The position numbers and the translations under genes were made by a program. The notes under the pieces were generated by a model, which had not been told where the DNA came from, made no database searches, and worked only from the letters and a program-made list of their open reading frames with translations. Of a DNA stretch of 64,000 nt, positions 1,524 through 62,319 are shown piece by piece. The stretch's first letter is position 1. Each line of letters starts with the position of its first letter. The stretch is from a virus. Taxonomy: Duplodnaviria; Heunggongvirae; Uroviricota; Caudoviricetes. The stretch lies in IMG/VR virus record IMGVR_UViG_3300042398_001353. One strand, written 5' to 3'.

Positions 1524-4500
1524 ATGAGAATTGTACTTACTGAAGACCAAATAGCCAGAATTAAATTAAAATTAGATAAGGAAGGTCTAAATGAAGATTG
1601 GTTTAACGATTTCATTTCAAAAGGAAGTGATTTAGTTAACAAAGGTATAGAGGCTGGAAAAGAATTTATCTCCGGTCTGGATAATGATGTTGAGAAAAAA
1701 GCAACAGATGAACCAGGTAAAGCTGACTATATTGGCGATGATGTAAATGATTTTTTTGAAATATTAAAAAACATAGACACATCAATTCCAGAACAAAAGT
1801 ATGGTTCAATGGTTCGTCAACAAGCTGTTGAGGCTGTTCAAATTGGTTTACAGATCTTAGGGTATAGCTTACCTAGATTTGGTACCGATGGTTTATTCGG
1901 GCCAGAAACAGCTCAAGCTGTTAATAAGTATAAAAAAGACAAAGGTTTAGAGGCTGTTAATGAAGTAGCTATAATCGCACCATTGGCGTTACCTTCAGGA
2001 TATAGGGGTAATTTTGGTGTACAAAGAAAAACACATGTTCATAATGGTATCGATATTAGTGCTTCAGTAGGCACACCGATTAAAGCAATTGCAGATGGTG
2101 TTGTTGTAATGAGTGATCCAAACTACAATGACAGTTGTGGCGCCGGAATTTCAATTAAACACGCTGATGGTTTTCAAAGTGGATACTGCCATTTATCAAA
2201 AAATAGTGTTAATGTTGGTGATTCTGTGAAACAAGGTGATATTATTGGTTTAACAGGTGGTGCAGCAGGTGCGCGAGGTGCCGGTAATTCAGATGGGCCA
2301 CATCTACATTTTACACTTAAAAAAGGTGGAACACCAGTTAATCCAATGAGTTATTTTGGTGATTCAATTGGTACATTTAGCGCGCCAACAGATGGGTTTT
2401 TAGCTGGAGGGTCGGTTATTACTGTTGAAATGGTTGATAAGTTAATTAGTGATTTGGAAACCAAAGGAGTTACATCGGATGATTTAAAAAAGCATATTGA
2501 TCCTGCGATTACAACTGGTGGTTCAATGATTTTCAGTGACCTTGATTTAAAAACTAGTAGTGGTAAAGCTGCTTATAAAGATATTTGTGACAATTATATT
2601 AATCAAGTTAATCCATCAGCTTTTGTTAATGGTACAATGATGGCTGACTCGGCAGAAAGAGTGTTCACTAGATACGGAAAGTATGTTCCACCTGAATTAG
2701 CTTTGGCACAATTAGCACTAGAAGGTGGTTTATTGAGCAATACTAGTAAAAGACCTATCAAAACTAAAAACCCATTCAATGTTGGGAATACTGACAAACC
2801 ATATAGAGATAATTACCGACCTAGTTTTGAAGATGGTGTTGACATTTATTATGATCTTATAGCTAGAAAGTATTTGGTAAAGGGTAAAACAGCTAATGAT
2901 TTAATCAATGATTTTAGAAATGCAGCTGGAAACCATTATGCAACAGCTGGAGCATATGAAGAAGGTTTAAGAACTTTAGTTGCGTCTATAAGAAAAAGAA
3001 ACGCATCTGTTTATGCTAGATTAAATTTAAATAAAAGTGCATCTGGTTTATCAGAATCATTATTATCAGAGGCAGATAAAAGACAAGCAATTAAAAATGC
3101 TTTCCGTGTTAGTCAAGATTGGGCTGACGAATTTCACAGATTAAGTGATAAACTATCTGTGTGGATTGCTGATACATTCATTACTAAAATAGTACAATCT
3201 TACGGAAATCAAGCGCCAGCTGGTGAAGATCCTAGAGAATGGATTCTTGGCTTATTTAATGAGTCAACACCTAGTGATCGTGGTATATTTGGTAGAATAT
3301 GGAATGAAACATATAAACCAAAGTATGAATATATTATGCACTTTATTCGTGCACCAAGAAGAGAACAATTAAATGTTCGAGAGCTTACATTAGATTCAGC
3401 ATATGCTATGGCGGAAGAGTGGCATGATAATTTGGAGGTAAGTAAAGAAACTAACTTCAAAGAAGAGGGTGATGTTTTTATTGATTATAGAAACGCTGAA
3501 GGTGTTGGTTATTATTGGGTACACTTACATTCAGGATATTGTTCAAAAGAAGCAGATAGAATGGGACACTGTGCTAGATCAAATAGAGGTGAACTAATTT
3601 CATTCAGAAAAGTAAATGATTTTGGTGAAGGTGAATCTTATTTAACTGTAGACTATAGACCAGGTGGTATTATTGGAGACTTCCATAGACATGGTAACAA
3701 TAAACCAACAGCTAGATTTCACAAACAAATTGTTGATTTTTTAATTAACACAACATATCCTGTTACAAGTTTAACAAGAGAAGGTGTACATAGATATGAA
3801 GATAATTTCCAACTAAGTGATTTATCAGCGGCAGATTTAAAAACTGTTCGTGATAACAACGCAGCATTAAAATATAATATTTCAGATACAAATAGTTGGC
3901 CCGAAATTATTGATGCTATACTTTCTGGTGATCTTGATTTAGGAAATTATTCAGGTAAAATAAAATTACAATTATTGCAAAAAGCTATTTCATTAAATCT
4001 TGGTGACGAGTTTATGAGATTATTTAACCATGATGTTGTTAAAAGTATGTTAGGTGCAACAGATGAATTAAGTAACAGCGAAAGAAATTTCTTACTTACT
4101 AATTTTGGTTCACAAATTGTTGAAACAATGAAATCAGCATTAGACCTATCAATTTCTGAGAATGGTTTAAATGTCGCTAAGGAACATTTTATAGATAGTT
4201 TAAGAGCAATATCACAAGACTTATTTAGTGGTTATCAAAACTTATGTCCATATATTGATTACGGATTTAAAAAGTTTGATGAAGAAGCCAGAATTGAAAT
4301 CGTTGGATCAAGAGGTATAAAGAGAACATTATTCTCATGTACCGATGTTCTACCATTCTTAATACGTTTTGCTGAGAACTCACCTGTGGATAGTAATGGA
4401 AACATTATTGTTAAAACAGAAGATGGTTTGTGGGGATTAATTAAGAGAAGCGGTGAAACTATTCTTCACCCACAGTTCTATGCTGTAGGTATATCACCAG

Positions 4501-4598
4501 AGAACAAGAGAACTTACACCGTTCAGAACGCAAATTCAGACTGGTTTAGATTTGACCCAGAGACTGGTGAAACATTAAAATTAGCTAGAAAAAGATAA
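1524..4598 (+). CDS. multidomain virion-associated peptidoglycan hydrolase (PG_binding_1 + M23 endopeptidase + glucosaminidase-like + RMGHC module)
   Basis: ORF track starts at TTG 1518; ATG at 1524 gives MRIVLTEDQIARIK, matching the shared leader. PG_binding_1-like QAVEAVQIGLQILGY...DGLFGPETAQAV; M23 motifs HNGIDI and PHLHF; ALAQLALEGG...NPFNVGN resembles Glucosaminidase; C-terminal EWHDNL...GVGYYWVHL...RMGHC module is shared with 57953..59491 and 62317..63552. Confidence 0.8.
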   Translation: MRIVLTEDQIARIKLKLDKEGLNEDWFNDFISKGSDLVNKGIEAGKEFISGLDNDVEKKATDEPGKADYIGDDVNDFFEILKNIDTSIPEQKYGSMVRQQAVEAVQIGLQILGYSLPRFGTDGLFGPETAQAVNKYKKDKGLEAVNEVAIIAPLALPSGYRGNFGVQRKTHVHNGIDISASVGTPIKAIADGVVVMSDPNYNDSCGAGISIKHADGFQSGYCHLSKNSVNVGDSVKQGDIIGLTGGAAGARGAGNSDGPHLHFTLKKGGTPVNPMSYFGDSIGTFSAPTDGFLAGGSVITVEMVDKLISDLETKGVTSDDLKKHIDPAITTGGSMIFSDLDLKTSSGKAAYKDICDNYINQVNPSAFVNGTMMADSAERVFTRYGKYVPPELALAQLALEGGLLSNTSKRPIKTKNPFNVGNTDKPYRDNYRPSFEDGVDIYYDLIARKYLVKGKTANDLINDFRNAAGNHYATAGAYEEGLRTLVASIRKRNASVYARLNLNKSASGLSESLLSEADKRQAIKNAFRVSQDWADEFHRLSDKLSVWIADTFITKIVQSYGNQAPAGEDPREWILGLFNESTPSDRGIFGRIWNETYKPKYEYIMHFIRAPRREQLNVRELTLDSAYAMAEEWHDNLEVSKETNFKEEGDVFIDYRNAEGVGYYWVHLHSGYCSKEADRMGHCARSNRGELISFRKVNDFGEGESYLTVDYRPGGIIGDFHRHGNNKPTARFHKQIVDFLINTTYPVTSLTREGVHRYEDNFQLSDLSAADLKTVRDNNAALKYNISDTNSWPEIIDAILSGDLDLGNYSGKIKLQLLQKAISLNLGDEFMRLFNHDVVKSMLGATDELSNSERNFLLTNFGSQIVETMKSALDLSISENGLNVAKEHFIDSLRAISQDLFSGYQNLCPYIDYGFKKFDEEARIEIVGSRGIKRTLFSCTDVLPFLIRFAENSPVDSNGNIIVKTEDGLWGLIKRSGETILHPQFYAVGISPENKRTYTVQNANSDWFRFDPETGETLKLARKR

Positions 4599-5129
4599 TT
4601 AAGATTCGTAACCATCAAGACCATAGAGTTCACCATATTTTGGATCGATCTCTTTGTTCTTGATAAGGTTTAAAACGTTAGCCTTAATTTTGTTTGCTGC
4701 AGCTCTAATAAGAGTTCCATTAGCTGTTATGCGCATACCGTCTTCATATTCAACGGTTTCATCATTACCACGAATATACCATATACCCTTTTTTTGGAAT
4801 ATACCGAAGCCTCTACAACCTAAAAATTGATTAAGTCTATCTTTGGTTGTTGTGGTTTCCCAACCACCAGTGCTTATTGTGACTACATTCTCTTGGTTAA
4901 TTTTTAATATGTTGGTATTATGGTACTTTATAGCAACAGTTCCTTCATCTATTTTATGAACGATGGTGTTGTTACCAAGCTTCTTTGACTCTCTCCCATC
5001 AAGAAAGTTAGATAGTGATCCGTAATAAAGATCAGTACAAGACAATCTAGCCTCGCTTATTTCTACTTTACCCACTTTAGACTCTAATCTCTCGATTTGT
5101 TCTTCTGTTAATACTATTTTAATTCCCAT
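4599..5129 (-). CDS. leader-tagged hypothetical protein (putative virion protein)
   Basis: N-terminus MGIKIVLTEEQIERL matches the shared leader; ATATTTATATT box lies just upstream on the - strand. Confidence 0.5.
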   Translation of the reverse strand: MGIKIVLTEEQIERLESKVGKVEISEARLSCTDLYYGSLSNFLDGRESKKLGNNTIVHKIDEGTVAIKYHNTNILKINQENVVTISTGGWETTTTKDRLNQFLGCRGFGIFQKKGIWYIRGNDETVEYEDGMRITANGTLIRAAANKIKANVLNLIKNKEIDPKYGELYGLDGYES

Positions 5130-11605: not shown

Positions 11606-12568
11606 ATGAAATCAATTTATTTAACAAGTGCAGACACTAGATTTATTTATGACAACCTAAAAAATCATGGACATTATGAATGGTTTGTAATATTAAGATG
11701 TGTTGAGGAGATGCAATGTGATTACACATTCTTTTCAACTTTAACCTGGGCTGATATATTATATAATAACGAGATTACAGATGCCGGTGGTGGAAAATAT
11801 GCAACATATGAAGTATCAATTAAATTAAAAGATGAAGTAAGTGAAATTGTTGATATATTAGATATCACTGATCTTAATCAACTCATTTGTGGTAAATTAG
11901 CGTCGGTAACAGCTAGAGAATTATATAAAAAATTATGTGAATATGAATGTATAAAACAATATCAAAGCTCCGGTATTAAAATTAGAATAGATTCATTTGG
12001 TGAGTATCGTGTTGATAAAGATGGAACTAAAATATATGCTGAAAAGAAACTCGATTCTAATTTAGATGTAAATGGTGAAGAAAAGGTTAAACTATATTCA
12101 TTATATGTAGCTGAATGGGCAGATAAAATGGCACATAAAAGACCCAAAGGATTTGAACTTAAAAGCTATGACAAAAAAGTTGGAGTTGCTGGTAATGTTG
12201 ATGAAAGAATGAAAACTTTATCAGTTGATAAAAGAAGTGGTGGAACGCTATCACCAATGTTTGTTAAAGCATTGAGAGCATGGCATTTACCTATAAAAGA
12301 ATGTATTAAACTTGAAACAAGAATACATGATTATCTTGATGATAGAAAAACAGGTGGTGAATGGTTTACTGATTACTATGAGGATGTAATTGAGATTGTT
12401 TTGATGAAGATAGAGGAAACAATTGAAAATGGAATAAATGTAGTTGAACTTAATATAGATAAGGAAACTGAAGATATTACTTTCTACGAGAAGATGCCAA
12501 GGGATTTTTGGTTTAAAACAAAACAAGAAGAAAATAATGATGATGGTCCAGTAATATATAGAATATAA
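11606..12568 (+). CDS. T5orf172 (GIY-YIG-like) domain protein, paralog of 19643..20419
   Basis: C-terminal DDRKTGGEWFTDYYEDVIEIV (GxEWF signature); N-terminus similar to 19643..20419 (YEWFVILRCVEEM vs YDFYIIIKCLTEL; TWADI vs TWDKL). Confidence 0.5.
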   Translation: MKSIYLTSADTRFIYDNLKNHGHYEWFVILRCVEEMQCDYTFFSTLTWADILYNNEITDAGGGKYATYEVSIKLKDEVSEIVDILDITDLNQLICGKLASVTARELYKKLCEYECIKQYQSSGIKIRIDSFGEYRVDKDGTKIYAEKKLDSNLDVNGEEKVKLYSLYVAEWADKMAHKRPKGFELKSYDKKVGVAGNVDERMKTLSVDKRSGGTLSPMFVKALRAWHLPIKECIKLETRIHDYLDDRKTGGEWFTDYYEDVIEIVLMKIEETIENGINVVELNIDKETEDITFYEKMPRDFWFKTKQEENNDDGPVIYRI

Positions 12569-14870: not shown

Positions 14871-15776
14871 ATGAAATTAGCTATTGTTGATATTGAAACC
14901 ACAGGATTTGTAAGGGAAAAGAACAATTCCATTGTGGAAATTGCCATTGTTTTATGTGACACGGAGACCAGAAAGACGGAGATCCTGTTCAACAATATCG
15001 TTAGGGAAAGCACACTCAGTGACTATCATAAAAGATCCTGGATATTTGATCATTCTGATTTAAGATTCAGCGATGTTGAACGCGCTCAGGACATCAATAC
15101 ATACAGAGCAGAGATTCAAGCTATACTAGACAAATACAAAGTAACAGCCTATAACAAGAAGTTTGATATGGGTTGGTTATCCAGTCTTGGTTTCAGGTAC
15201 AAAGAAAGCAAATGTTTAATGGAAACTGCTAGTGAATATGCTAAAGTTCTTCTTGACGAGGAAATAAGTCTTAAGGAAGAAAATGTATATAGATGGTTAA
15301 TGCAAGATAGAAACTATGTGGAGAAGCACAGAGCATTACCAGATGCATTAGATGAAGCTCAGATATTATATAAGCTATGTGACTTTGCTGAAGATCCCAT
15401 TATCAAGGAAAGTATTGATCAGCTAAGAACAAATAAAACTATTTCAAAAGTTAATAGACATATTAATGAGGATGCATTTAAGCCGGCACCCAAAGAATAT
15501 AAAAGTAACAAAGAAGTTAGTCACGATCCAAAAACATTTGAAGATAAATTTGACTATACCAAGAAAACCATTGAGGTTTTATTATCTGAATATGATATCA
15601 TCTCAATGATTGTATTGGATGAACCAGCAAAAGCCACATTCAGTTATAAAGGTAAGATGTATATCTTTTATTATAATGCCGGTAGATGGGGAATGATGAA
15701 AGGTAGTCAACAACCAGAAAAATATTATTTTTGCAAAGATCCAGATGATCTTTTCACAAGATTTTTAAATAAATAG
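14871..15776 (+). CDS. DEDDh 3'-5' exonuclease domain protein, paralog 3 (N-terminal exonuclease + C-terminal extension)
   Basis: Exo I AIVDIETTGF; Exo III HRALPDALDEA. Confidence 0.65.
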   Translation: MKLAIVDIETTGFVREKNNSIVEIAIVLCDTETRKTEILFNNIVRESTLSDYHKRSWIFDHSDLRFSDVERAQDINTYRAEIQAILDKYKVTAYNKKFDMGWLSSLGFRYKESKCLMETASEYAKVLLDEEISLKEENVYRWLMQDRNYVEKHRALPDALDEAQILYKLCDFAEDPIIKESIDQLRTNKTISKVNRHINEDAFKPAPKEYKSNKEVSHDPKTFEDKFDYTKKTIEVLLSEYDIISMIVLDEPAKATFSYKGKMYIFYYNAGRWGMMKGSQQPEKYYFCKDPDDLFTRFLNK

Positions 15777-19642: not shown

Positions 19643-20419
19643 ATGAAAAGAACATACATAACTAAAGATGAATTAAAATCTCTTTTAAACATCATTAAAA
19701 GGGATAAAAAATATGATTTTTATATTATTATTAAATGTTTAACTGAACTTAATGTTGGTTATAAAGTTCTTGAAAAAATGACTTGGGATAAGTTGGCTAT
19801 TGCTTTAAGTGATAGAAAAGATTTATATAACGAACTGGTTGAATTCAGAGACATTGCCAACTCTAAACGTAAATCCTACAAGGTAAACAATATTGTCCAA
19901 ATTAGTAATCGTTACTTTAATGAGAAAATAAAAGAGTATCAAAGATATGCTGGTATATCAAGAAGTGTAAACATAAGTAGTAAAATATTTGGTAGTAGAA
20001 TTTATTTGGAATCCGGTGAAGTGCATGGGGTTATAGAATATGTGAAAAAGAATAAATTAGCTGAACCGCCTAAAAATAACTTTTTATATGTGGTTAGACA
20101 TAAACACAGGGATGATATGATTAACACGCTTTTAAAAGATAAAAAAATTGGAATAACTAATGATTTAAACCACAGAATAAAAGGATTAACATTAGGACCA
20201 GTAGAGATAGAATGTTTAAAAGTTTGGAAAATTGATTTTTCTTTTATTCATAAAGTGGAGAAGATTTTACACAAAAAATTTGAAGATAGAAAAATTATTG
20301 GTGAGTGGTTTGAGGATATGGACAACAATATAGTACAGGAAATAGAAAAGGAAATAATGCTTCTTAGGTTATTGGAAATTGATATAGAAGAAATTGATAA
20401 TGATAATCTTATTATCTAA
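19643..20419 (+). CDS. T5orf172 (GIY-YIG-like) domain protein
   Basis: FLYVVRHKHRD ... IGITNDLNHRIKG ... DRKIIGEWFEDM: T5orf172/MUG113 signature. Confidence 0.6.
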   Translation: MKRTYITKDELKSLLNIIKRDKKYDFYIIIKCLTELNVGYKVLEKMTWDKLAIALSDRKDLYNELVEFRDIANSKRKSYKVNNIVQISNRYFNEKIKEYQRYAGISRSVNISSKIFGSRIYLESGEVHGVIEYVKKNKLAEPPKNNFLYVVRHKHRDDMINTLLKDKKIGITNDLNHRIKGLTLGPVEIECLKVWKIDFSFIHKVEKILHKKFEDRKIIGEWFEDMDNNIVQEIEKEIMLLRLLEIDIEEIDNDNLII

Positions 20420-31526: not shown

Positions 31527-32360
31527 TTATTTTGTTTCTTCTTCTTTTTCTGCTGGTGTTATACCTTCTGGTAACTTCTCGAATTCTACATACCCATTAT
31601 TCTCATCATAGAATCTGTAGATATCATTCCAGCCAGTATATTTTAACTTCTGTCCATTCACCATATATTCCTTCCAGTGTTCCAGTCCAGCGACCTTCTC
31701 CATTTTATTCTTCTTCTTAGCATACTTAAGACCTTCTTTATACAAAGTATTAAATCTTTTTAATTCCTCAGCATTCAAGAAATCTAATTGCTTTAATGTT
31801 CTTTCATATGATTCTTTAATCTCAGCCATATCATCTTCAAACCAATATTCCATATTGTTATCAATTTCGTGCCAGAATAAATCTTCATCAATTCTGTATA
31901 TACCAGCATAGTAATCCAGACAGAATTCTTCCAGTACATCTCCATCATCTACTACCAACTTACCAGCATACCAGTCACCACTCTCATCATATGTGTGTTC
32001 AATATGTAACCTGTACTGGCTGGAGAGTAATTTAGCAAAACCTGTTACAGGACTCCAAGCAGAATCAAAACACATAGTGATGCATTCATCATCATCCTCA
32101 AGTACAGACATAAATTCCTCAGCAGACTTCTGCCACTTGCTACCATATACACGAATGTTATGCTCGTACCAGCCACCTTCTTCATTCCAGTCATCCTCTC
32201 TGCCCACCAGATAGTCATACGCACCTCCCCAGACTTTTGGGTTGGCTTTCATATCATCCTCCATAAACAGAAGTTTGGCTCTGAGTCTTTTGATTCCTTC
32301 TTGAGTAGTATCTGACTCTGAAGGGGTAATTGTCATTGAGTTGTTGCACCAATTTGGCAT
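31527..32360 (-). CDS. hypothetical W/Y/E-rich protein
   Basis: 277 aa; begins MPNWCNNSMTI. Confidence 0.4.
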   Translation of the reverse strand: MPNWCNNSMTITPSESDTTQEGIKRLRAKLLFMEDDMKANPKVWGGAYDYLVGREDDWNEEGGWYEHNIRVYGSKWQKSAEEFMSVLEDDDECITMCFDSAWSPVTGFAKLLSSQYRLHIEHTYDESGDWYAGKLVVDDGDVLEEFCLDYYAGIYRIDEDLFWHEIDNNMEYWFEDDMAEIKESYERTLKQLDFLNAEELKRFNTLYKEGLKYAKKKNKMEKVAGLEHWKEYMVNGQKLKYTGWNDIYRFYDENNGYVEFEKLPEGITPAEKEEETK

Positions 32361-36521: not shown

Positions 36522-37406
36522 TTAGCTAATCAGTTGACCTAATTCTGCAAACACTTCGCGCTCTCTACGGCCGTACACTCCGAACAATTTGTTCTCGTTG
36601 CTATCACCTTTTAATTGGTGAGTAGTGTACTTTGTAATACCTGAGAACAATCCCCAAAGGTTACCGCCCTTGTCTTGCACCTCGCCCATAATATTCACCT
36701 CCAAATCGGATAGGATATTTTTCTTGCGAGTAGATAGAGTAGACAAATCAGCTAAACGCTCCTCACCCTCTAAATTAAGGATGCGAGTTAAAGCCAAATC
36801 CTTAACGGATGCAAAGCCTTTTGATTTAAGGGATTTAAGTAATACGGCACTAGGCTCATTGATCGAAATAGAGTCCATCTTGATAATCTGCTCGAATATC
36901 TTTTCCTCCGCGCGTAGTACATCCTCAATCTGCATACAAATCAAATCGATTCGCTCGTGCATCTTTTGAGTATGACGCACTTTGTTAGCCATCTCGCGAT
37001 AGTTAGCAAAGAAAGTGTTTTGGCAAGAGATAGTAAGATTGCTATGGCCAAAAGCAAGTGAGGTAGAGCCATCAAAACTATTCACGCAAGTAAGATACCC
37101 TTTTACCATATCATTATTTACGCGCTGGTCTTTTGTCTTTAATTGAACATAGACCTTTTGGCCTTCGCCAAAATAACCTCCTTTGTGTAGAGGTAAATCC
37201 ATCTTACCACTAATGCGGTCAAGAATTTCCATCATCTCTAAATTCTGCAAAGGGTGATAACCCTTTCCGTGTACTCCAAGAATAGCATTATTATCCGTGC
37301 GGACAATAGCAATGCTATCCGTTTCGATGTTACTTTCTGCGGTAACTAATCGTTCGCCTTTAACGGCCCAATTCAAATTCGCTTGTTTTAAAATTGCATT
37401 TTGCAT
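36522..37406 (-). CDS. hypothetical protein (possibly phage/plasmid-like DUF932 family)
   Basis: 294 aa; size and N-terminal pattern reminiscent of DUF932, not verifiable by eye. Confidence 0.35.
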   Translation of the reverse strand: MQNAILKQANLNWAVKGERLVTAESNIETDSIAIVRTDNNAILGVHGKGYHPLQNLEMMEILDRISGKMDLPLHKGGYFGEGQKVYVQLKTKDQRVNNDMVKGYLTCVNSFDGSTSLAFGHSNLTISCQNTFFANYREMANKVRHTQKMHERIDLICMQIEDVLRAEEKIFEQIIKMDSISINEPSAVLLKSLKSKGFASVKDLALTRILNLEGEERLADLSTLSTRKKNILSDLEVNIMGEVQDKGGNLWGLFSGITKYTTHQLKGDSNENKLFGVYGRREREVFAELGQLIS

Positions 37407-42531: not shown

Positions 42532-43257
42532 ATGAAACTTATTATAACAGAATCTCAGCTTAAGAGAATTATTAGCGAAAATGTTAAGATTAAACCTGGC
42601 TCTCCTGAGGAGTTGGTTGGTTTATTGGATTTGTTACCAGTACATGACACAGCCAAGTATATTGGTGAAGAGATTTATCAGGATGTGATGAACTATTTTG
42701 ATAATGATGTTGAGTTACCTAGTGAAAAGAAATATTCGTTTCATCCAGAGGAAGCGTGTTTGCGTCCATATGAGGTAACCATCGATTTTATGCCATCAAA
42801 TAACAGCACGGGTCTTGGTTATGCTAGTGAGGACTATATTCAGGTAAAATTTTTAAGCAAGGATTCTAATGAATATAAGATGTCAAAAGGGTTTAATCCG
42901 GCTTGGCGTTTGGTTAAGGGATTATATCATATCCTTAAGCATGAGTGTAGTCATTTCTATTTGTCACAAAGGGGTGTTGAGCAATGTTTATATAACACAC
43001 ATCCAGATGGTATGAAGAAGTATTATCAGGATAGACAGGAGTTGGTTTTACACAGCAGAGAGATATTTGATAGATTCCAGGACGATTATCCTAATTGGAA
43101 AACGATGGATCTTGAATTAATTACCAAAAGAATTAGCAATAGGGTTAGGGATTTGCGTAGTCATACCAATATACACGCACCATTTAATGCTGGTACACAG
43201 AAGAAGTATGTTAGTTTCATTATAAACAGCTATATTAAACCAAACCTACAATCATAG
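42532..43257 (+). CDS. leader-tagged protein
   Basis: MKLIITESQLKRIISENV: consensus leader. Confidence 0.5.
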   Translation: MKLIITESQLKRIISENVKIKPGSPEELVGLLDLLPVHDTAKYIGEEIYQDVMNYFDNDVELPSEKKYSFHPEEACLRPYEVTIDFMPSNNSTGLGYASEDYIQVKFLSKDSNEYKMSKGFNPAWRLVKGLYHILKHECSHFYLSQRGVEQCLYNTHPDGMKKYYQDRQELVLHSREIFDRFQDDYPNWKTMDLELITKRISNRVRDLRSHTNIHAPFNAGTQKKYVSFIINSYIKPNLQS

Positions 43258-44117: not shown

Positions 44118-44144
44118 GACCCTCTCATTGTAGAGGGTTTTTTG
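44118..44144 (+). terminator. rho-independent terminator
   Basis: ccctct-cattgt-agaggg followed by TTTTTT. Confidence 0.7.
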
Positions 44145-44159
44145 TTATATTTATATATT
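44145..44159 (+). promoter_or_regulatory. TTATATTTATATATT box
   Basis: Immediately precedes ATG 44160. Confidence 0.4.
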
Positions 44160-44663
44160 ATGAAGTTTAGAGACGTAATAAAAAGCATATTGATTAATGA
44201 GGACGAGAACGGCCCATCTGATAATGCAAAATGGATTGCAAAACAAGTATTGGTTAAGTTTATGTTTGCTGATAGTAAAGAACAGACTGATTTTGTAACA
44301 GATTATGATCTAACTGTAAATGGTGAATCGTCCTTTCTTCTAGATCCTGGTAGTGGTCATGAGTTTTGGCTTGAATACACTTTTGAAATTGATGTCACAT
44401 CATACCCATCATATACCCCAGCAACATGGGACGATCCAGGTGACTATGATCCAGCAGAATATGGATTTAATATAACAGGTTTGTCAGTTATTGAGAATAA
44501 CGAATCGGTATATAAGGGACCAGATTTTACCAATTTTTTAGATTTTAAGGTTGGGGAATTGGAATCACGTTATGGTGCACCTAGAAAAATAGATGGTTCT
44601 GATTTCTTATATGAATTTTTTGGTGATAGAATTGAAGAAGAATTAAATAACCTAATTGATTAA
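44160..44663 (+). CDS. leader-tagged protein
   Basis: True start MKFRDVIKSILINEDENG at 44160; the track start at 44142 lies in the promoter box. Confidence 0.45.
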   Translation: MKFRDVIKSILINEDENGPSDNAKWIAKQVLVKFMFADSKEQTDFVTDYDLTVNGESSFLLDPGSGHEFWLEYTFEIDVTSYPSYTPATWDDPGDYDPAEYGFNITGLSVIENNESVYKGPDFTNFLDFKVGELESRYGAPRKIDGSDFLYEFFGDRIEEELNNLID

Positions 44664-45572: not shown

Positions 45573-46079
45573 ATGAAAATCATCATCACAGAGACCCAAT
45601 TAAAATCTATTATAGAGGTTAGCGGGAAACCAAAGTACCCAAATTTAGATTTAATGTCTGATGATGAGGTAGCACAAATTGCGTCTGAACATATCAAGAA
45701 GTATAGAACACTTAAAAATAATAAGGCTTTATTAAATGCGTGTATAGAGAGAGGTATAGATTATGACTCATTCAGACCTTTGACTAGTGCTAAGAAATAT
45801 AGAATGATGAGTGATGATGAGTTATTGAAATTGGCTAGAAAGTATAGCAATATGGGAGACCTTCAGCAGAAAGCCGGTGTATTATATTACGAATTAAAAA
45901 AGCGAGATATATCTAAGAATTTATTTAAACCTTTTATGAGGTATATCAATACGGAGATTCCAACTGATATGTTTTTAAAGAAGAAGAAAGATTATACAGA
46001 CTTGGATGATGATAGAAGATATGACAGTGATTCTTTTATGTTTAGTCCTGTTAACGAGGAAATTAGAAAGAAGAATTAA
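45573..46079 (+). CDS. leader-tagged protein
   Basis: MKIIITETQLKSIIEVSG. Confidence 0.5.
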   Translation: MKIIITETQLKSIIEVSGKPKYPNLDLMSDDEVAQIASEHIKKYRTLKNNKALLNACIERGIDYDSFRPLTSAKKYRMMSDDELLKLARKYSNMGDLQQKAGVLYYELKKRDISKNLFKPFMRYINTEIPTDMFLKKKKDYTDLDDDRRYDSDSFMFSPVNEEIRKKN

Positions 46080-52604: not shown

Positions 52605-53459
52605 ATGAAAATAATAATAACTTCAGATCAATTTAAAAGGATTAAGGGTAGTATGGATCATGATGGCCCAAAACCAAAAAAAGATCCAACAGCCAAGTTT
52701 TTAAAATGTCAGGGTTGCAAGAAGTTTTTTACACAAACATTTCATAAAAAAAAGAAATCGTTACCTATATGTCCTTGGTGTGGTAAACACAATATGGATC
52801 TGGAAGAGGCTGAACTTGATGAAAGAAGTAGAAGTTTTGCTTTTACCAGAAAAATGAGGTTATTTAGCAAAGCGGAAATGATGGCTAACCCAATGAGATA
52901 TAAAAATAGCGAACTTAAAAAAAGAGGTTTAGATGAAATTGGTGTTTATAAGTTCTCCGAAAGATCCAATGCTGGTGTTCCAGGAGTTCAGGACTATGAA
53001 GAAGTTATGAATAATGGTTCTCTTTTTAAAGAGGTAAATGGTTTTGTTTATCTATATGAGATTGATGAGGATGATTATAGTAGCACAACAATAAAAATTT
53101 ATATTGTAGACAAAGTAAAAAAAGAACAAGTTGGTGTTGCTGAATTTGAAATGAGAGGAGCCGATTTTTATGTTAGTTTACCATATGTTAGACAGGAATA
53201 TAGAAAGAGAGGTATCGCGATGGAGGTATATAAAATAATGTTAACATTTGGTGGTTTGGTATCAGGTAGAGCACAGTCAGAACAAGCTGTTGCTTTATGG
53301 AAAAAAATGTATAAAGAATTACCAAATAAAATGGTGTTCATCGACGATGAAGGGAAAGAATATGATGTTGAATTAATTAACAACGATTTAGTGTATGGTG
53401 ATGAAAAAGAAAGTGTATACAAAGATAGAGGTGGTAATTTAAAATTATATCAAAGCTAA
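52605..53459 (+). CDS. leader-tagged zinc-ribbon + GNAT-like acetyltransferase protein
   Basis: Start trimmed to MKIIITSDQFKRIKG; CQGCKK...CPWCGK zinc ribbon; VRQEYRKRGIAMEVY resembles GNAT motif A. Confidence 0.45.
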   Translation: MKIIITSDQFKRIKGSMDHDGPKPKKDPTAKFLKCQGCKKFFTQTFHKKKKSLPICPWCGKHNMDLEEAELDERSRSFAFTRKMRLFSKAEMMANPMRYKNSELKKRGLDEIGVYKFSERSNAGVPGVQDYEEVMNNGSLFKEVNGFVYLYEIDEDDYSSTTIKIYIVDKVKKEQVGVAEFEMRGADFYVSLPYVRQEYRKRGIAMEVYKIMLTFGGLVSGRAQSEQAVALWKKMYKELPNKMVFIDDEGKEYDVELINNDLVYGDEKESVYKDRGGNLKLYQS

Positions 53460-54445
53460 TGAAAAAGCTAGTAATAACAGAAGACCAATACAAAAGATTG
53501 GTAAAGCAGATTAGACAACCAGATGGTATTAGTTGTGGGCCAACTTGTATTAAAATGGTTGGTGATTTCTTTAAGGGAGAAGTTGCTAGCATTTCTGAAA
53601 TATGTAAGAGTTGTGGTACCGACCATATTACTGGAACGCCACCAGAAAGAATGAGAAAAGGGTTAAACTCCTTGGATATAAAATACATAGAACATATTGA
53701 TGATGTGAATCCATATGATTCATTAAGAGAAGCAATCGATAGAGGTAGCGTAACAATGTTAAGAACATTAACACATAGAGTACCTCATTGGATTGTTGTT
53801 CATTCATATAACCCAGAAGCACAAAACATTTTTTACGTAAACGATCCATGGTTGGGTCAGTTAGAATATAACGAGGAACAACTAGAAGAAATATGGAGAG
53901 AAAGAAATTACTTTTTCTTTGAGGTTTTAAAAGAAAATGAACAAATAGATTTAAATGAGGATGATGAGAGTAGTGTTATAATTAGACCATATAAAAACAA
54001 TGACTATAACGCTGTTTTTAATATGTTAGAAGATGTTTATAGTAAACTTGGTGGGATGAAAGCTGAATCTATATGGGGTGTGATTAATCAACAATGTAGG
54101 GGTAATTTTGGCTTGAGCGTTGTTGCTGAAGTTAATGGAGAAGTTGGTGGTTTTTATTTTATAACACAGGAAGACTTACCACCTAAAGAAGGTACAGAAA
54201 TAACGGATGACATGATTGGTATTCAAGGTGTTGCTTTAGGTATTTCTAGCAAATATAAAAATGTAGGGATTGGGAAACAATTAATAGTTTACCCACAAAC
54301 CATTGGTGCTGATTATATTTGGGGTTATCAGTTAAAACAGTTAGATAATATTGATGACTGGCTGAAGAGACGTAAAATATATCATGAAAACCCAGGAATG
54401 TATATAACTTATCAAATATTTAATAATAATGAAAAGAATAATTAA
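53459..54445 (+). CDS. leader-tagged peptidase C39-like (papain-fold) + GNAT-like acetyltransferase fusion
   Basis: MKKLVITEDQYKRLVKQIRQPDGISCGPTCIKMV (Q...C-G motif of C39 peptidases), HWIVVHSY, VNDPW (His/Asp); C-terminal GIQGVALGISSKYKNVGIGKQL (GNAT motif A-like). Confidence 0.5.
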   Translation: MKKLVITEDQYKRLVKQIRQPDGISCGPTCIKMVGDFFKGEVASISEICKSCGTDHITGTPPERMRKGLNSLDIKYIEHIDDVNPYDSLREAIDRGSVTMLRTLTHRVPHWIVVHSYNPEAQNIFYVNDPWLGQLEYNEEQLEEIWRERNYFFFEVLKENEQIDLNEDDESSVIIRPYKNNDYNAVFNMLEDVYSKLGGMKAESIWGVINQQCRGNFGLSVVAEVNGEVGGFYFITQEDLPPKEGTEITDDMIGIQGVALGISSKYKNVGIGKQLIVYPQTIGADYIWGYQLKQLDNIDDWLKRRKIYHENPGMYITYQIFNNNEKNN

Positions 54446-55652
54446 ACTTAAAGAATCTGAGGTTTTCAATGTTATTACCAAGATTATAAACGAAGAAACA
54501 GCTGGTGAAATTACAGTAAGTGCAAGTAATGATTTAGGTACACATCCGGAGTTTGGTGGATTGTTATCTTTATTAGGACAACTTAAAAAAAATGTACAAG
54601 CAGCATTAAGAGGTAAGATCCCATATAGAATTAAAACAGATAGTCAGACAGGAACTGTTAAACCATCAAAACAAGGTAATGCTTTAGTTTTGTCGGTTAC
54701 ATTAATCCCTTGTGAAGAAAGTGAGAGACATTATTTCTTTGATGGTGCTGGTGGTATCTATAGCTATATTAACACAACAAGTGAAAAATCAGTTCATTCT
54801 AAAGTTAGAACTGCTGTTATGAATAAAGCAACTGCTGGTTTTGCGGGTGCAGAACCACAAGAAGCATACCCTAATCACATCAATCTACGTGGATTCACTA
54901 ACTTAAACACTGTTGAGCCAAATAAGGAATATAAATTAATTTTAAAGTTTTTGGTTGGAAAAAGACCTGGTGGATATTATGATGTTGGTGACGATGAACC
55001 GGAACAAAAAATTGATAATAAAACAATAGATAATACAAATAAAGCATCTACAGCGGCGACAAAACAAGATGTTGGTACTGAACCGGAAAAGAAAGTTGAA
55101 AGTAAAAGTGAAAAACCAGTTTCTGCGGAATGGGAAGCTACTGACATAGATACCGCACATAAAGTGAAAACTTTTATTACTGATGTTCAAGCACAATTAG
55201 AGGATATGTGGAAAAAGGGTAAAAATCCTATTGTTGAGGATATTGAAATGACGATTATAAAAAATTCTGACGGTTCATATAAAACAAAAACCAGTGCAAC
55301 AATAACAGAAAGCCAAGATGGTAAAGCTTGGGTTGGTATTGAAAGTAGGGGTTCTGCTGGGGGTGACTATCAAAATAGAGCGAATGATCAATATTATGGT
55401 GGTAGATATGACGATAAAGGTAGACCAGTAATTGATAAAAAGACAGGTAAACAACTTAATAAAGGTCAATCAGAAAAAAAGGCTGACGGAACTGATAACC
55501 CATGCTATGGTAAATCATTAATTGATTGTATGAAACTACCTGCTATTGGTGGTGATGAAGTTAAATTACTTAAGACGGTTGAAGACGCTAGTGTTCCATT
55601 TAAACAATATTTTGTAATTTTTACAAAACCAAAAAAATTCCCACCTAGATAA
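54429..55652 (+). CDS. leader-tagged protein
   Basis: MKRIIKLKESEVFNVITKIINEE. Confidence 0.45.
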   Translation: MKRIIKLKESEVFNVITKIINEETAGEITVSASNDLGTHPEFGGLLSLLGQLKKNVQAALRGKIPYRIKTDSQTGTVKPSKQGNALVLSVTLIPCEESERHYFFDGAGGIYSYINTTSEKSVHSKVRTAVMNKATAGFAGAEPQEAYPNHINLRGFTNLNTVEPNKEYKLILKFLVGKRPGGYYDVGDDEPEQKIDNKTIDNTNKASTAATKQDVGTEPEKKVESKSEKPVSAEWEATDIDTAHKVKTFITDVQAQLEDMWKKGKNPIVEDIEMTIIKNSDGSYKTKTSATITESQDGKAWVGIESRGSAGGDYQNRANDQYYGGRYDDKGRPVIDKKTGKQLNKGQSEKKADGTDNPCYGKSLIDCMKLPAIGGDEVKLLKTVEDASVPFKQYFVIFTKPKKFPPR

Positions 55653-56128
55653 TGAAAATAGTGATAACAGAAGAACAATTTAATAATTTATATAACGTAC
55701 CGGACAGACCAACATTGACTGAGGTTGAGTACATTATTGATGTGATTTATGAAGAGGATGAGAACAATAAAGATAACGAAGAAGATGACTTTGATTTAGG
55801 TGGAAGTGGTGAAAGAGGCGAACATCATCTATATTATTTTTATATTGGTGAAGCATTCTTTGATGAATTTTATGATAAAACTTATTTAGAATTATTTGAT
55901 CAATATAAAGATGATGCGGGTGGTTGTGAAAAATTTGTGGATGCCGTTATTGGTGATATCTTAAAAAAGATGAAGCAATCAATTGAAGAAAAAACCGCAG
56001 CAAAAATCTTAAAGAAAGTTATTAAAAGACAAAGCACTGTTAGATTCAAAGAATCTGATATACGAAAAGCTTTAGATGCGCATTTTGGTAACTTTATTTG
56101 TAATGAGTTTATTGAGGAAACTCGTTAA
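55652..56128 (+). CDS. leader-tagged acidic protein
   Basis: MKIVITEEQFNNLYN. Confidence 0.45.
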   Translation: MKIVITEEQFNNLYNVPDRPTLTEVEYIIDVIYEEDENNKDNEEDDFDLGGSGERGEHHLYYFYIGEAFFDEFYDKTYLELFDQYKDDAGGCEKFVDAVIGDILKKMKQSIEEKTAAKILKKVIKRQSTVRFKESDIRKALDAHFGNFICNEFIEETR

Positions 56129-57963
56129 ATAATATCTTTTAATATTGATTTAAAATTAAGCTTTTCAAATAAAGGTTCGATTTGCATATGATTAACTAGG
56201 TTGTCAACTTGAACAGAACCCTCTTCCGTCTTGTTAGTTTTTTTGTTAAACAATTTAATATCAACACCATTTTCACATGTAAAATGTTTAAACCAAGGCT
56301 GTTTTAACTCTATTCTAACAAATTCATTTTCATAAACGCCAGCGTCACTAAAATATTTTTCAAATATCTTAATTAAAGTATTTCTTGTTTCTTTGCAACC
56401 AGTTTCTTCGTTATCAAAAAATTCTTCATGCTTACTATCAAAATAATCATCAAAAGCATTATCCATAACTTCTTGTGATGGATATTCATAATCATATTCT
56501 GGATATTCAATATAGTCACTATCCGGTAAATCATAATAATCCATATAATCGCGAATAAAATCTTCTAGTGATTCTATTGAATAAATTTCTTTTTCACTAA
56601 TAAATTCAATTAATTTTTCTATTGGTGCTTTTATCACCTTTTCACCACCCCAGAATGTATCAAGTTCTAACACAGCTTCATATTCTTTAATTATTGCTTC
56701 AATAGCAGCTTCTAAAGCGGCACCAGATCCTTCTGTGAATTTATCGAGATATTCATCTCTAACTTTTTCATTTTTATATAGTCCAGAGTTTTCAGCAAAC
56801 TCCACGAAATTTTCATGGGTTCTACAATAAAACCCAAAAAGATCAATTAATTTGTTTTTATTTTTCTCATAATAATTGTATAAATAACCTGATAAAATAT
56901 TTTGGGCTTCATATCTATAACTATCATATTCTGATTCTGATACACTATTGTATGCATCATTGTGCCAAGATCTTAACGTTCGTAAACTATCGTCATAACC
57001 TTCAACTGATGACGGTAATATTTTAACATCAATTTCTAAATTACCTCCACTTATTGCATAATTAGCACTTTTATCAGTAAGGAAGTTAGCCAATTCATCT
57101 TCATTTTCGTTATTCAATGCGGTAACAAAAGGGTTGGTACCACCATATTCTTTATATACAACTTCTCTGTATATAGTTAGGTCAGATTGATCCAAGAATT
57201 TTTTACCTTTTGCTAATTCAGATTTAACATCATCAAGATCTGGATTTGAAATATATAGTGATGGAAAAAATAATTTTTTAATTTCTAACCTTTCGTTAAA
57301 AAAATTAGGTCTGTTACCAACCTCATTGTCTGCAGGGTTTTTTAATTGATTAGATGGGAAATGTAATTGATACTTATCGTTCTCATTTTCTTTGTTAACA
57401 ATAATATACAATGGGCCTTGTGGTGAATATGAATTAAATCGACATGTTCTATCTTTATGATCAGGGTTTAAACTATAATCTCCCCAAGCCGTACACCATT
57501 CTGTGTTAACACCAAGATAGGATGAGGCTTTTTCACTTTTTGGTACTATCACGAACCAGCTATCGCCATTGTGTTTTACCTCATATTCTTTTGGGTCTAG
57601 AGCTTCTATTAGCGTTGCTAAACTTGTATTTGTTTTTACTATTTTATTTTTAACAAGTTCGTAAAGATCTGGTATAGAATTAATTTTCATTTGACCAATC
57701 TTCATTTGATATTTGTAAATTAACTCAAGATATTCTGTTGCTTTTGGTAAATCTTCAAATTTTAAATTACCATTTCTATACATGTTAATTAAGAAAGGAA
57801 AATAAGAACCTAGTCGAATAATTTTATCATCAATTATTTTTGTTTTAGGATCAGCGGAGGCAATTCTAATGAAAGTTTTTCTTTCAACATCAGAAAAGCG
57901 TTTTTTATAAACACCTTCTTGATCTTCGGTTAATAGGCCGTATATCACTTCTCTAAATTTCAT
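56125..57963 (-). CDS. leader-tagged large protein (612 aa)
   Basis: MKFREVIYGLLTEDQ; rich in Y/E/D. Confidence 0.45.
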   Translation of the reverse strand: MKFREVIYGLLTEDQEGVYKKRFSDVERKTFIRIASADPKTKIIDDKIIRLGSYFPFLINMYRNGNLKFEDLPKATEYLELIYKYQMKIGQMKINSIPDLYELVKNKIVKTNTSLATLIEALDPKEYEVKHNGDSWFVIVPKSEKASSYLGVNTEWCTAWGDYSLNPDHKDRTCRFNSYSPQGPLYIIVNKENENDKYQLHFPSNQLKNPADNEVGNRPNFFNERLEIKKLFFPSLYISNPDLDDVKSELAKGKKFLDQSDLTIYREVVYKEYGGTNPFVTALNNENEDELANFLTDKSANYAISGGNLEIDVKILPSSVEGYDDSLRTLRSWHNDAYNSVSESEYDSYRYEAQNILSGYLYNYYEKNKNKLIDLFGFYCRTHENFVEFAENSGLYKNEKVRDEYLDKFTEGSGAALEAAIEAIIKEYEAVLELDTFWGGEKVIKAPIEKLIEFISEKEIYSIESLEDFIRDYMDYYDLPDSDYIEYPEYDYEYPSQEVMDNAFDDYFDSKHEEFFDNEETGCKETRNTLIKIFEKYFSDAGVYENEFVRIELKQPWFKHFTCENGVDIKLFNKKTNKTEEGSVQVDNLVNHMQIEPLFEKLNFKSILKDII

Positions 57964-59491
57964 TTAATCTATCGTTTAATATTTCATTAAAATTATCTCT
58001 ATCAGCATCTGGATACCATCTATCATCAACATCTAATCTAGGTTTTTCAATATAACCGTCCCCCAATAATTCATTGAATAAACATTCAACATCACCATCA
58101 TCACCATCACATCGTTCGCTAATCTCATCCATATCTTCATCACTAATATTGTTATTTGATATTAATGTTTCTAAATCTACTGAAATAACAATACCTTCGT
58201 CATTCATACTTATTATCTCACCATATTCTTCAAATGCACTCTTAACATTTTTGTATAAATAATCTTCATAATCATTCGCCTCAGCATCATTAACCGACCA
58301 ACGAATTCTATTTTTAATTTCGTCATCTTCATCATATTCCTCAATAAGTTCTAATAAATTCTCAGAGCCTGTTATATTTGGATTTTTTTGTTTTAGTATA
58401 TCAACAATTTTTAAAATATTATCATTGTTTAATTCATTTTCAACAGCATATTTCCAATCAGCATATTCACTATTATCCCAATATTGCCAGGTGTTACCAA
58501 CCAAAACGTCATCAACAATATTACTATATTCTCCTCTAACATAATCTTCAGCTTGTTTTGGGTAAATTGTTAATGTAAAAATTCCATATTTTAATGGTTC
58601 AACTAAACCGATGCTCCTTAACAATTTATATTCTTGCCTACCTTTAAACAATTCTGGCCTATCTTGATAAAGTTTTTTAATTTCTTCTTCTGTTAAATCA
58701 GAAATTTTAAAATCTTTTTCACTAGCATATTCATAACCAATATCTTCAATCAAGTACCCATCTTCATCTTTAAAATAAAATAATGGTAAAATTACTGAAT
58801 GATATTCACTCGTTGGTTTTGAATTTTTTTGACCTTTTAATTGTAATAAAGATCCAGATTCATTAATTGATGCTGTTAAGTGACTTTTATTTAGTGTGTG
58901 ATCATTTTCAATTTTTTTAAAACTCCTTAATGAATATAAAACACCTCTTGTGCTTGCACAATGTCCCATTCTCTCAGCTTCATCAGGACAATTACCTGTA
59001 CCTAAATTAACCCAGTAATACCCCACACCATTTTTTCTAAAATCTAATATAATATCTTTTGTTTCATTATAATCTATTTTTGATTCACCAATACCTAAAG
59101 ATTCGTGCCATCTTTCAGATTCATCATATAACTCTTTAAAACTTAGTTCTTGATATGATTTAATATTACCAGCTAAAGCGACTCTAACCCAGTCCATAAT
59201 TCCTCGCATCTTGTCTCTTTCTCTAGTAAAAGAGTTAGACCCATTAACCAATCCCATTCTTTGTTGAATAGAAATTTTATCTCTATTGATGATTTCTTTA
59301 GCCCTATCCGCGGTATCATAATATTCTTCTTCATACATTTCTAGTATTTTATATGCGAAAAATATTGACAATGGTCCAGCTATTCTTGATAACGCTTCAG
59401 CCTGATCGTCCTTTACTTTCAGTTTATTGATTAATATGTCCTTTTTACTAGCCTCAGTTAGTATATTTTCTAACAGTGATTTAAATTTCAT
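57953..59491 (-). CDS. leader-tagged protein carrying the RMGHC module
   Basis: MKFKSLLENILTEA; ERWHESL...DFRKNGVGYYWVNL...RMGHCAS paralogous to the modules in 1524..4598 and 62317..63552. Confidence 0.5.
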   Translation of the reverse strand: MKFKSLLENILTEASKKDILINKLKVKDDQAEALSRIAGPLSIFFAYKILEMYEEEYYDTADRAKEIINRDKISIQQRMGLVNGSNSFTRERDKMRGIMDWVRVALAGNIKSYQELSFKELYDESERWHESLGIGESKIDYNETKDIILDFRKNGVGYYWVNLGTGNCPDEAERMGHCASTRGVLYSLRSFKKIENDHTLNKSHLTASINESGSLLQLKGQKNSKPTSEYHSVILPLFYFKDEDGYLIEDIGYEYASEKDFKISDLTEEEIKKLYQDRPELFKGRQEYKLLRSIGLVEPLKYGIFTLTIYPKQAEDYVRGEYSNIVDDVLVGNTWQYWDNSEYADWKYAVENELNNDNILKIVDILKQKNPNITGSENLLELIEEYDEDDEIKNRIRWSVNDAEANDYEDYLYKNVKSAFEEYGEIISMNDEGIVISVDLETLISNNNISDEDMDEISERCDGDDGDVECLFNELLGDGYIEKPRLDVDDRWYPDADRDNFNEILNDRLNEI

Positions 59492-59963
59492 TTATTCCAA
59501 ATTTTGCTCTTATTATGTCCATACTATGCTGTGATAACACCCACTGAATATTGCGAGCAACTTCTCGTGGTAATTTTTTTTCAAGTCTTTTTTGTTCTAA
59601 GTTGTTATCTCCATATATTTTGTGAACAACAAAAGAAACTATATCAAAAGCGTTATACTCACTAGACATACCCATTAAAACCTCAACCTTTTCTCTGGTC
59701 GTTAATTTTGTGGTGTCAATATATGGGAATATTACCGGTAGTCTTTTTGTCATTTCCACAATATCCTCACAATCATTTTCGTTTTCTCGACATCTGGCCC
59801 ACATGTTCCAAACGTCATCTGACGTTAAATTACCCCCAAAATCATATTGTTGAGCTAGTTCAGTACCATAAAGTGTATCAAAAATAACCGCCGGTTTGCT
59901 ATTGATTTCAATGTGTTTTTTGATTAATTTGTTATACTGGCTTTCAGTAATGAGTATATTCAT
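59481..59963 (-). CDS. leader-tagged protein
   Basis: MNILITESQYNKLIKKHIE. Confidence 0.5.
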   Translation of the reverse strand: MNILITESQYNKLIKKHIEINSKPAVIFDTLYGTELAQQYDFGGNLTSDDVWNMWARCRENENDCEDIVEMTKRLPVIFPYIDTTKLTTREKVEVLMGMSSEYNAFDIVSFVVHKIYGDNNLEQKRLEKKLPREVARNIQWVLSQHSMDIIRAKFGINEI

Positions 59964-62292: not shown

Positions 62293-62319
62293 AAAAAGGG
62301 GTTTAAAACCCCTTTTTTA
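62291..62319. terminator. bidirectional rho-independent terminator
   Basis: AAAAAAAGGGGTTTAAAACCCCTTTTTT between convergent genes. Confidence 0.7.

Follow-up and report, generated by a model that had tools for sequence, protein, structure and literature searches.

PcfJ, whose prototype comes from the conjugative plasmid pCF10 of Enterococcus faecalis, is common in Herelleviridae and in streptococcal prophages, and our literature searches returned no functional study of it. On pCF10 the canonical PcfJ gene lies beside a gene of the AcrIIA9 family, and in temperate phages canonical PcfJ genes follow recombinase genes in the early region. Phages and conjugative elements also encode polyvalent proteins, whose signature domains include ADP-ribosyltransferase (ART), ArdA-type anti-restriction and RadC domains and for which entry into the cell alongside the DNA has been proposed (PMC5512222), and in phage T4 diverse internal anti-defence proteins have in common only a capsid-targeting leader (PMC3012670). 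Here we describe a module of about 280 amino acids (aa) that is shared by three proteins encoded on a 64,000-nucleotide stretch of Caudoviricetes DNA (IMG/VR record IMGVR_UViG_3300042398_001353; this whole stretch is called the window below). In our overall explanation the module belongs to a branch of the PcfJ family, serves as an effector and acts enzymatically, a combined reading to which we give a probability of about 0.5.

Three collinear copies of one module

The carriers are a 1024-aa multi-domain lysin (1524..4598, + strand), a 512-aa protein (57953..59491, - strand) and a 411-aa protein (62317..63552, - strand). Pairwise BLASTP over the module gave 29% identity across 291 columns (E 3e-28) between the lysin, taken in the 1026-aa form discussed below, and the 512-aa protein, 33% across 286 columns (E 6e-47) between the lysin and the 411-aa protein, and 34% across 267 columns (E 7e-35) between the 512-aa and 411-aa proteins. 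A preliminary description of this DNA, made from the sequence alone, had reported a triplicated block in these three open reading frames (ORFs); the ORFs and the peptides that it quoted are present, and the alignments confirm that the block is collinear. The word 'triplicated' proved exact: when the six-frame ORFs of the window were all scanned with a hidden Markov model (HMM) of the module, exactly three copies scored (E 4e-72 to 1.5e-102), and no other ORF fell below E 0.03.

Copy 1 is internal in the lysin (3045..3872, +; BLASTP and module HMM, E 4e-72 to 7e-72), in agreement with the 3050..3900 given earlier. Its first residues are GLSESLLSE followed by ADKRQ, its alpha/beta core spans about 3303..3869 (+), and its His-Cys codons, part of RMGHC, lie at 3567..3572 (+). 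Copy 2 is N-terminal in the 512-aa protein (58640..59482, -; E 1.5e-102, also found by BLASTP), with His-Cys codons at 58958..58963 (-), and copy 3, the one modelled below, is N-terminal in the 411-aa protein (62698..63534, -; E 3.6e-78), with His-Cys codons at 62998..63003 (-). The module ends just past an 'NFQLxDL' motif, where the downstream match noticed earlier is real, F264, D268 and L269 being invariant in the first alignments. The block as first drawn was a real conserved domain, but its true start lies further upstream: some 120 residues separate the W-H motif from the conserved helix, 'LL(T/S)E(A)xK', with which the module opens.

A large and mostly metagenomic family

An exhaustive profile search of 1.84 billion cluster representatives (clusters at 50% identity) matched 3,147 at E≤1e-3, of which 2,048 reached E≤1e-10 and 436 reached E≤1e-30. 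The likeness, which might have been confined to the three paralogs, therefore extends to thousands of clusters. Nearly all of these are metagenomic, and members of the family are carried on contigs of up to 312-324 kb. When 50,697 deposited phage genomes were searched with queries drawn from three subfamilies, the module appeared in a single one, the 440-kb Salicola phage SCTP-2, in protein gp31. The carriers of the family are almost entirely uncultured, and the G+C content of the window is 34%.

The module of the window proteins returned no match in Pfam, even when the isolated module was searched at E≤10, and it belongs to no PHROGs or NCBIfam family. For the 512-aa protein as a whole, the only signal across Pfam, PHROGs and NCBIfam was TIGR02925, far below threshold (E 0.014, 15 bits, cut-off 108.9). 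Searched against PDB sequences, the module profile gave no match at E≤10.

The module as a probable branch of the PcfJ-like superfamily

Among 97 module representatives the commonest Pfam family was the PcfJ-like PF14284, seen in 5 of the 97 at E≤0.05 (best E 2.1e-4). In P0218, a protein with three tandem module copies, this family matched at E 4.4e-5 with 23.8 bits (cut-off 25), exactly on one MGHC..QIKGKGN core. The canonical PcfJ set for profile comparison was built from pCF10 PcfJ and 277 phage records with PcfJ domains, of which 12 diverse ones were taken, and comprised 15 aligned domains. Aligned with hhalign, run without the secondary-structure term, 160 module copies matched these 15 domains with a probability of 78.7%, a P of 1.7e-5 and a score of 41.8. 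The probability grew with the depth of the alignment, from 4% with a four-sequence PcfJ alignment through 51% to the final 78.7%, and the controls, a reversed PcfJ alignment and 20 column-shuffled ones, scored 8.5-15.0 with P≥0.21. The alignment pairs E178, H184, C185, R197, T210, Q222, G225 and N228 with PcfJ invariants, and at relaxed settings it also pairs DW with DY and WH with AHD. Module and canonical PcfJ keep the same order of motifs, E...HC, (F/L)xR, T and Q-x-(K/R)-G-x-x-N. The module HMM was not significant against the single pCF10 PcfJ sequence; a homologue search with the 124-aa PcfJ domain returned short fragments only, and a scan of genome contigs returned three loci.

Structure comparison points the same way. 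A Foldseek search of the module's AlphaFold2 model against BFVD put SCTP-2 gp31 first (E 3.6e-12), followed by four models named 'PcfJ-like protein' (E 2.9e-5 to 3.9e-3, probability 0.91-1.0); predicted model is here compared with predicted model, and the TM-scores are low (0.23-0.27) owing to the length of the multi-domain target proteins. A plasmid protein bridges the two groups: a tblastn search of 72,556 plasmids with the 411-aa protein found WP_078528384.1 of Komagataeibacter nataicola, annotated as 'PcfJ domain-containing protein' (E 1e-5). In pairwise BLASTP the two proteins align with 29% identity over 166 columns (E 3e-12), an alignment that covers DW, WH, F-x-W, MGNC, FSLR, HVTVEY and QMKCKGN, and over the stretch aligned to the module the Pfam PcfJ model scores 23.0 bits (cut-off 25). 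Because the sub-threshold Pfam matches, hhalign, the BFVD comparison and the bridging plasmid protein agree, the module is very probably a distant and large branch of the PcfJ-like superfamily that lies outside the curated models. The earlier statement that it could be placed in no known family gives way to this assignment.

The core common to both runs in the order (D-W/Y)...(W/A)-H...beta hairpin...E-x-x-x-[LM]-x-H-C...[FL]-x-[LI]-R...T-[LVI]-x...Q-x-[KR]-G-x-x-N, helix, and the model folds are alike. Both the module and canonical PcfJ occur in phages and on plasmids, often within long multi-domain proteins, and both are functionally uncharacterised. The module branch differs from canonical PcfJ in having its own helical N-terminal part of about 100 residues that starts with 'LLTEAxK', a G-x-G-[FY]-Y-W hairpin, a shorter spacer between HC and LR that lacks the 'Y..V..G' insert, a K-P pair after the Asn (K230 in 155 and P231 in all 160 copies) and a downstream 'F-x-L-x-D-L' helix. 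It also differs in occurring almost only on metagenomic contigs of jumbo-phage size.

Conserved residues and predicted fold

Conservation was counted over 160 domain copies taken from divergent representatives. W167, H184, C185 and R197 are as invariant as P231 (160/160), Y166 and N228 are present in 159, E178, M182 and S195 in 158, T210, G183 and I239 in 157, and Q222 in 146 of the copies. The W-H pair, which had been described as conserved, is frequent and not invariant (W in 147, its His, H137, in 146 of 160), and SCTP-2 gp31 reads W-R there. In the 15 canonical PcfJ domains the E, C, R and T are each found in 15, H in 13 and N in 12, and the equivalent of H137, in AHD, is found in 15. The claim of an invariant His-Cys pair, along with that of a conserved Tyr-Tyr-Trp (Y166 and W167), thus holds for the module copies, but the plasmid bridge and two PcfJ proteins of Lactobacillus phages have Asn in place of the His. 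Judged from the aligned sequences, only the Cys of the pair is universal once canonical PcfJ is included. As the His gives way to Asn in homologues, a strict Cys-His dyad is unlikely, and we propose none.

Two further readings of the conserved residues were set aside. A PTP-like 'HCx5R' motif does not fit, because the Cys and Arg lie 11 residues apart, further in PcfJ, and on different elements. The mild acidity of the module cores (median isoelectric point, pI, 5.8) speaks against a generic DNA-binding or nucleic-acid clamp role, which is therefore unlikely.

The AlphaFold2 model of the copy in the 411-aa protein, built from a 15-sequence module alignment, has a mean predicted local distance difference test score (pLDDT) of 89.1 and a predicted TM-score (pTM) of 0.77. 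Helices at 3-139 form an N-terminal bundle of about 140 aa, and an alpha/beta core of about 140 aa follows, in the order beta 153-157, beta 163-169, helix 176-182, beta 192-199, beta 204-214, beta 219-224, helix 233-243, a short strand and helix 271-280. The starting helix, with its leader-like 'L-L-T-E-A-x-K', reaches a pLDDT of only 55-66. In a Foldseek search of the PDB, places 1-13 were all taken by MYST domains, at non-significant values (E≥0.057). The predicted core appears to resemble the GNAT/MYST fold (HAT1, 1bob; ESCO1, 4mxe; Tip60, 2ou2; KAT8, 7cmr) in its succession of a beta strand, a helix, three antiparallel strands, a loop, a helix, a strand and a helix, and its Gly-containing loop Q-x-K-G-x-x-N-x-K-P occupies the place of the pyrophosphate-binding Q/R-x-x-G-x-G/A loop. 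This is a resemblance and no motif match, since the module loop has Q-x-x-G alone in common with GNAT motif A. MYST enzymes such as Esa1 and MOF carry their Cys on the strand before motif A, whereas the invariant Cys of the module lies in the helix-to-strand loop. None of the GNAT families in Pfam matches the module.

Carrier proteins and polyvalent architectures

The lysin consists of five regions on one chain behind its leader, MRIVLTEDQ: PG_binding_1 (1818..1952, +; PF01471, E 2.1e-6, 28.2 bits, cut-off 23), Peptidase_M23 (2037..2345, +; PF01551, E 1.5e-27, also matched by NCBIfam M23 endopeptidase models), a glucosaminidase-like region (2652..2990, +; PF01832, E 4.6e-5, 24.5 bits, below the cut-off of 30.2), the PcfJ-like module, and an unassigned C-terminal stretch of about 240 aa. 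Both the HxxxD (HNGID) and the HxH (HLH) motifs of M23 peptidases are there. A mechanical ORF list starts the protein at TTG 1518 (1026 aa). The start at ATG 1524, which the preliminary description had favoured, is the most likely one because it reproduces the leader of seven other ORFs, and an identical 1024-aa protein is found in public collections. That record is annotated as 'murein DD-endopeptidase MepM/NlpD', whereas the other window proteins are listed only as 'hypothetical protein'.

In the 411-aa protein the module is followed by a C-terminal region of about 120 aa, and among 133 homologues from a word-indexed search none has a Pfam domain. In the 512-aa protein it is followed by a very acidic tail (57953..58633, -; residues 286-512), which over 227 aa has a computed net charge of -38 and a pI of 4.05. 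In composition alone this tail recalls DNA-mimic anti-restriction proteins. The product of 55652..56128 (+) and the C-terminal half of that of 56125..57963 (-) are likewise Asp/Glu-rich by eye.

Elsewhere the module is fused to ART-PolyVal (P0235, P0258 and P0260), to ArdA with a sub-threshold DUF5661 (P0232) and to RadC-JAB (P0261); P0260 combines DUF5824, ART-PolyVal, HD, DUF3140 and the module, and DUF3140 and DUF5824 recur in several long module proteins. The module thus shares chains with ART-PolyVal, ArdA, RadC-JAB and HD domains of the polyvalent proteins described by Iyer, Burroughs, Anand, de Souza and Aravind in 2017; it is not among the domains named there, and 'PcfJ' occurs 0 times in the text (PMC5512222). 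The Pfam models of large-polyvalent-protein-associated domains include none that matches the module. By their domain content, the long module proteins are polyvalent, with several effector or conflict domains on one polypeptide, and for the lysin itself the better reading is likewise that of a polyvalent protein, with parts that act at different sites.

The boundaries of the module within long chains are also recurrent. The three copies in P0218, and a fourth boundary, each open with VLDIL(T/S/G)ED, and in the giant polyvalent members (P0225, P0232, P0237, P0250, P0255, P0258, P0260 and P0264) a conserved linker of acidic and glycine residues, (D/E)-x-(Y/F)-G-(E/G)-G-G, always precedes the module. 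Both kinds of site resemble recurrent domain-boundary or processing sites.

Proposed function and alternatives

In our explanation phages and plasmids employ one mobile module of about 280 aa in two ways. It either stands alone, followed by a C-terminal tail that varies, as the proteins of 411 and 512 aa illustrate, or forms a bead in long polyvalent proteins. In the latter it neighbours domains that attack or evade the host, which are peptidoglycan hydrolases here and ADP-ribosyltransferase, ArdA, RadC-JAB and HD elsewhere. A role in conflict, as an effector, is on balance favoured. The module would act as an enzyme, with its invariant polar residues carried on consecutive elements of the predicted GNAT-like core: E178 on a helix, H184-C185 in the following loop, S195 and R197 on the next strand, T210 on the strand after, and Q222-x-K-G-x-x-N228-x-K230-P231 in the strand-to-helix loop that forms the cofactor-phosphate site of GNATs. 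The conserved polar set (E178, H184, C185, S195, R197, T210, N228 and K230) has the look of an active or ligand-binding site. The universal Cys would be the reactive residue, whether it attacks as a nucleophile or binds a group or cofactor as its ligand, and the reaction, a transfer or a hydrolysis, may take place on a cytoplasmic host macromolecule at an early stage of infection. The analyses establish the homology of the three copies, the extent and conservation of the family, the predicted fold, the PcfJ link and the polyvalent architectures; that the module catalyses a reaction, that its Cys takes part, that it is delivered along with the DNA and what it targets is what we infer. The more specific reading, in which the enzyme depends on its Cys and has a GNAT-like scaffold, is tentative and has the odds against it.

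Several points weigh against this explanation. The canonical Q/RxxGxG/A motif is absent from the module, the module gives no sequence-profile signal to any solved structure, and the clustering of the conserved residues is deduced from the order of secondary-structure elements in the model only. The His of the His-Cys pair is replaceable, as described above. The PcfJ link rests on profile, structure and bridging evidence and not on a curated threshold, the three window proteins being without a PF14284 or other Pfam match over the module at any value up to E 10. PcfJ is itself functionally uncharacterised, so that the assignment explains ancestry and not activity. Among the 24 window ORFs scanned there are no structural genes near the module copies, and packaging or injection has no direct support.

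The same observations can be read without catalysis. The module may be a folded adaptor or handle for protein-protein contacts, for instance one that docks cargo domains to the machinery of packaging, ejection or transfer or that binds and inhibits a host protein, with the conserved residues forming a binding surface or a structural metal site in place of an active site. The module is common to very different architectures and stands three times in tandem in P0218, many domains of polyvalent proteins have no predicted catalysis (PMC5512222), His184 can be replaced by Asn in some PcfJ proteins, and each copy opens with a leader-like helix of low model confidence. We nevertheless consider an adaptor doubtful: the invariant residues are small polar or charged ones (E, H, C, S, R, T, N and K), kept over more than 3,000 clusters and in canonical PcfJ, a degree of invariance expected more of chemistry than of a contact surface obliged to co-evolve with varied partners, and the binding surfaces of phage anti-host proteins usually diverge fast. 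A metal-dependent hydrolase or other metalloenzyme, with E178, H184 and C185, together with H137, as ligands of a catalytic or structural Zn or Fe ion, would account for a Glu, a His and a Cys within eight residues and for H137 on the preceding helix, retained in most module copies and matched in every canonical domain aligned. It is unlikely, given that one ion is rarely co-ordinated by an adjacent His and Cys, that His184 is Asn in several homologues, that H137 is not invariant, and that the structural neighbours show no known metal-site signature or metalloenzyme fold. The earlier proposal of an 'enzymatic or metal-binding core' is still plausible.

The earlier proposal of a role at the cell envelope took its cue from the copy behind the M23 and glucosaminidase domains. 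On this view the module could help the lysin to bind or cut the wall or membrane, for instance as a wall-binding or regulatory domain of a virion-associated enzyme. That copy does lie behind PG_binding_1, M23 and the glucosaminidase-like region, and the lysin's orthologue P0126 (1035 aa) retains PG_binding_1. The 411-aa gene, too, directly adjoins a gene for a PG_binding_1 and GH19 endolysin (61450..62292, +), an adjacency kept in the related contig L018. Two of the three window copies and most of the family, however, have no wall-acting partner, the module bears no likeness to known wall-binding domains, and canonical PcfJ is found in early or recombination modules of temperate phages and beside the AcrIIA9-family gene of a conjugative plasmid. 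The proposal is weakened further because the other fusion partners, ART-PolyVal, ArdA, RadC-JAB and HD, act in the cytoplasm, and it now appears very improbable.

Shared leaders and the surrounding genes

The motif M-(K/R)-(I/L)-(V/I)-(I/L/V)-T-E-x-Q opens eight ORFs of the window, against 0.55 expected under uniform placement, and elsewhere within the 110 ORFs it has only three matches. These eight are 1524..4598 (+), 4599..5129 (-), 42532..43257 (+), 45573..46079 (+), 53459..54445 (+), 55652..56128 (+), 59481..59963 (-) and 59999..61129 (+); their proteins are otherwise unrelated, and the fuller form of the leader is M-(K/R)-(I/L)-(V/I)-(I/L/V)-T-E-x-Q-h-x-x-h-h. A second form, MKF(K/R)..hL(T/I)(E/N)E, opens four more ORFs, 44142..44663 (+), 56125..57963 (-), 57953..59491 (-) and 62317..63552 (-), the last two of which encode module proteins. 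The related 'LLTEAxK' opens every module copy, internal and tandem ones included. In other phages the leader reads M-I-L-S-E-N-Y-I-x-R-L-x-x-L-A-G-I, and in giant proteins E-Y-G-E-G-G stands ahead of the module.

The (I/L)-x-E end of the window leader presumably fits the T4 prohead-protease type of site. By analogy only, a short leader on otherwise unrelated window proteins is like that of the T4 internal proteins (PMC3012670); the two differ in that there is no sequence homology and that no prohead protease or structural gene is seen in the window. Possibly the leader is a T4-type capsid-targeting or protease-processing signal, or it is a leader of the double-glycine type, which the C39-like peptidase described next might process. 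A 328-aa protein with a Peptidase_C39-like papain-fold domain (53459..54445, +; Pfam E 4e-6) bears the shared leader itself and is conserved in L018, and it is a candidate processing protease for leader-bearing or polyvalent proteins. In a far-reaching version of our explanation, PcfJ-like modules would be cysteine-dependent enzymes of a new class, built on a GNAT-like scaffold and delivered into the cell by jumbo phages of Bacteroidota-type hosts. The leader (MKIVITE.Q or ..LLTEAxK, in at least 12 window ORFs) would then be a signal for both loading and processing that defines an injected anti-host set and is cut at the leaders, including that between SLLSE and ADKR in the lysin. We hold this version to be quite unlikely.

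The window is a region of accessory genes, with two T5orf172 genes, RNase_T, DUF932, DUF1281_C, the C39-like peptidase and the GH19 endolysin. The genes for DUF932, DUF1281_C (Api92-like), two T5orf172/MUG113 proteins (GIY-YIG-type) and the RNase_T exonuclease lie, listed together, at 36522..37406 (-), 31527..32360 (-), 11606..12568 (+), 19643..20419 (+) and 14871..15776 (+). DUF932 and DUF1281 are typical of anti-defence regions of mobile elements. The related contig keeps the local arrangement of genes near those for the 411-, 512- and 612-aa proteins and lacks the 376-aa gene at 59999..61129. The start of the 612-aa ORF (56125..57963, -) and the end of the 512-aa module gene share 11 bases. 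The 612-aa ORF has 94 homologues with an invariant LGVNTEWCTxWG ... GPLYI ... KYQ(L/F)HF ... Q, and it belongs to no Pfam, PHROGs or NCBIfam family. One partial homologue was binned as Bacteroidota. The idea that this ORF is a degenerate fourth copy was rejected, as hhalign gave it a probability below 1% against both the module and PcfJ, whether as a single sequence or as a 33-sequence alignment.

Implications for the PcfJ family

What is new here is a very large branch of a known, uncharacterised family, and on present evidence no new mechanism. A domain found in more than 3,000 clusters has had no Pfam, PHROGs or NCBIfam model, and its members have been annotated as hypothetical only. Through the placement with PcfJ, a building block common in giant-phage proteins acquires a name and limits, and the sequence space known for the PcfJ superfamily grows about twofold. 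The placement also exposes the universal residues, Glu, Cys, Arg, Thr and the G-x-x-N loop, as a basis for mutational or biochemical tests of any PcfJ protein, and the polyvalent-protein repertoire, in which new anti-defence activities are being sought, gains a recurrent domain.

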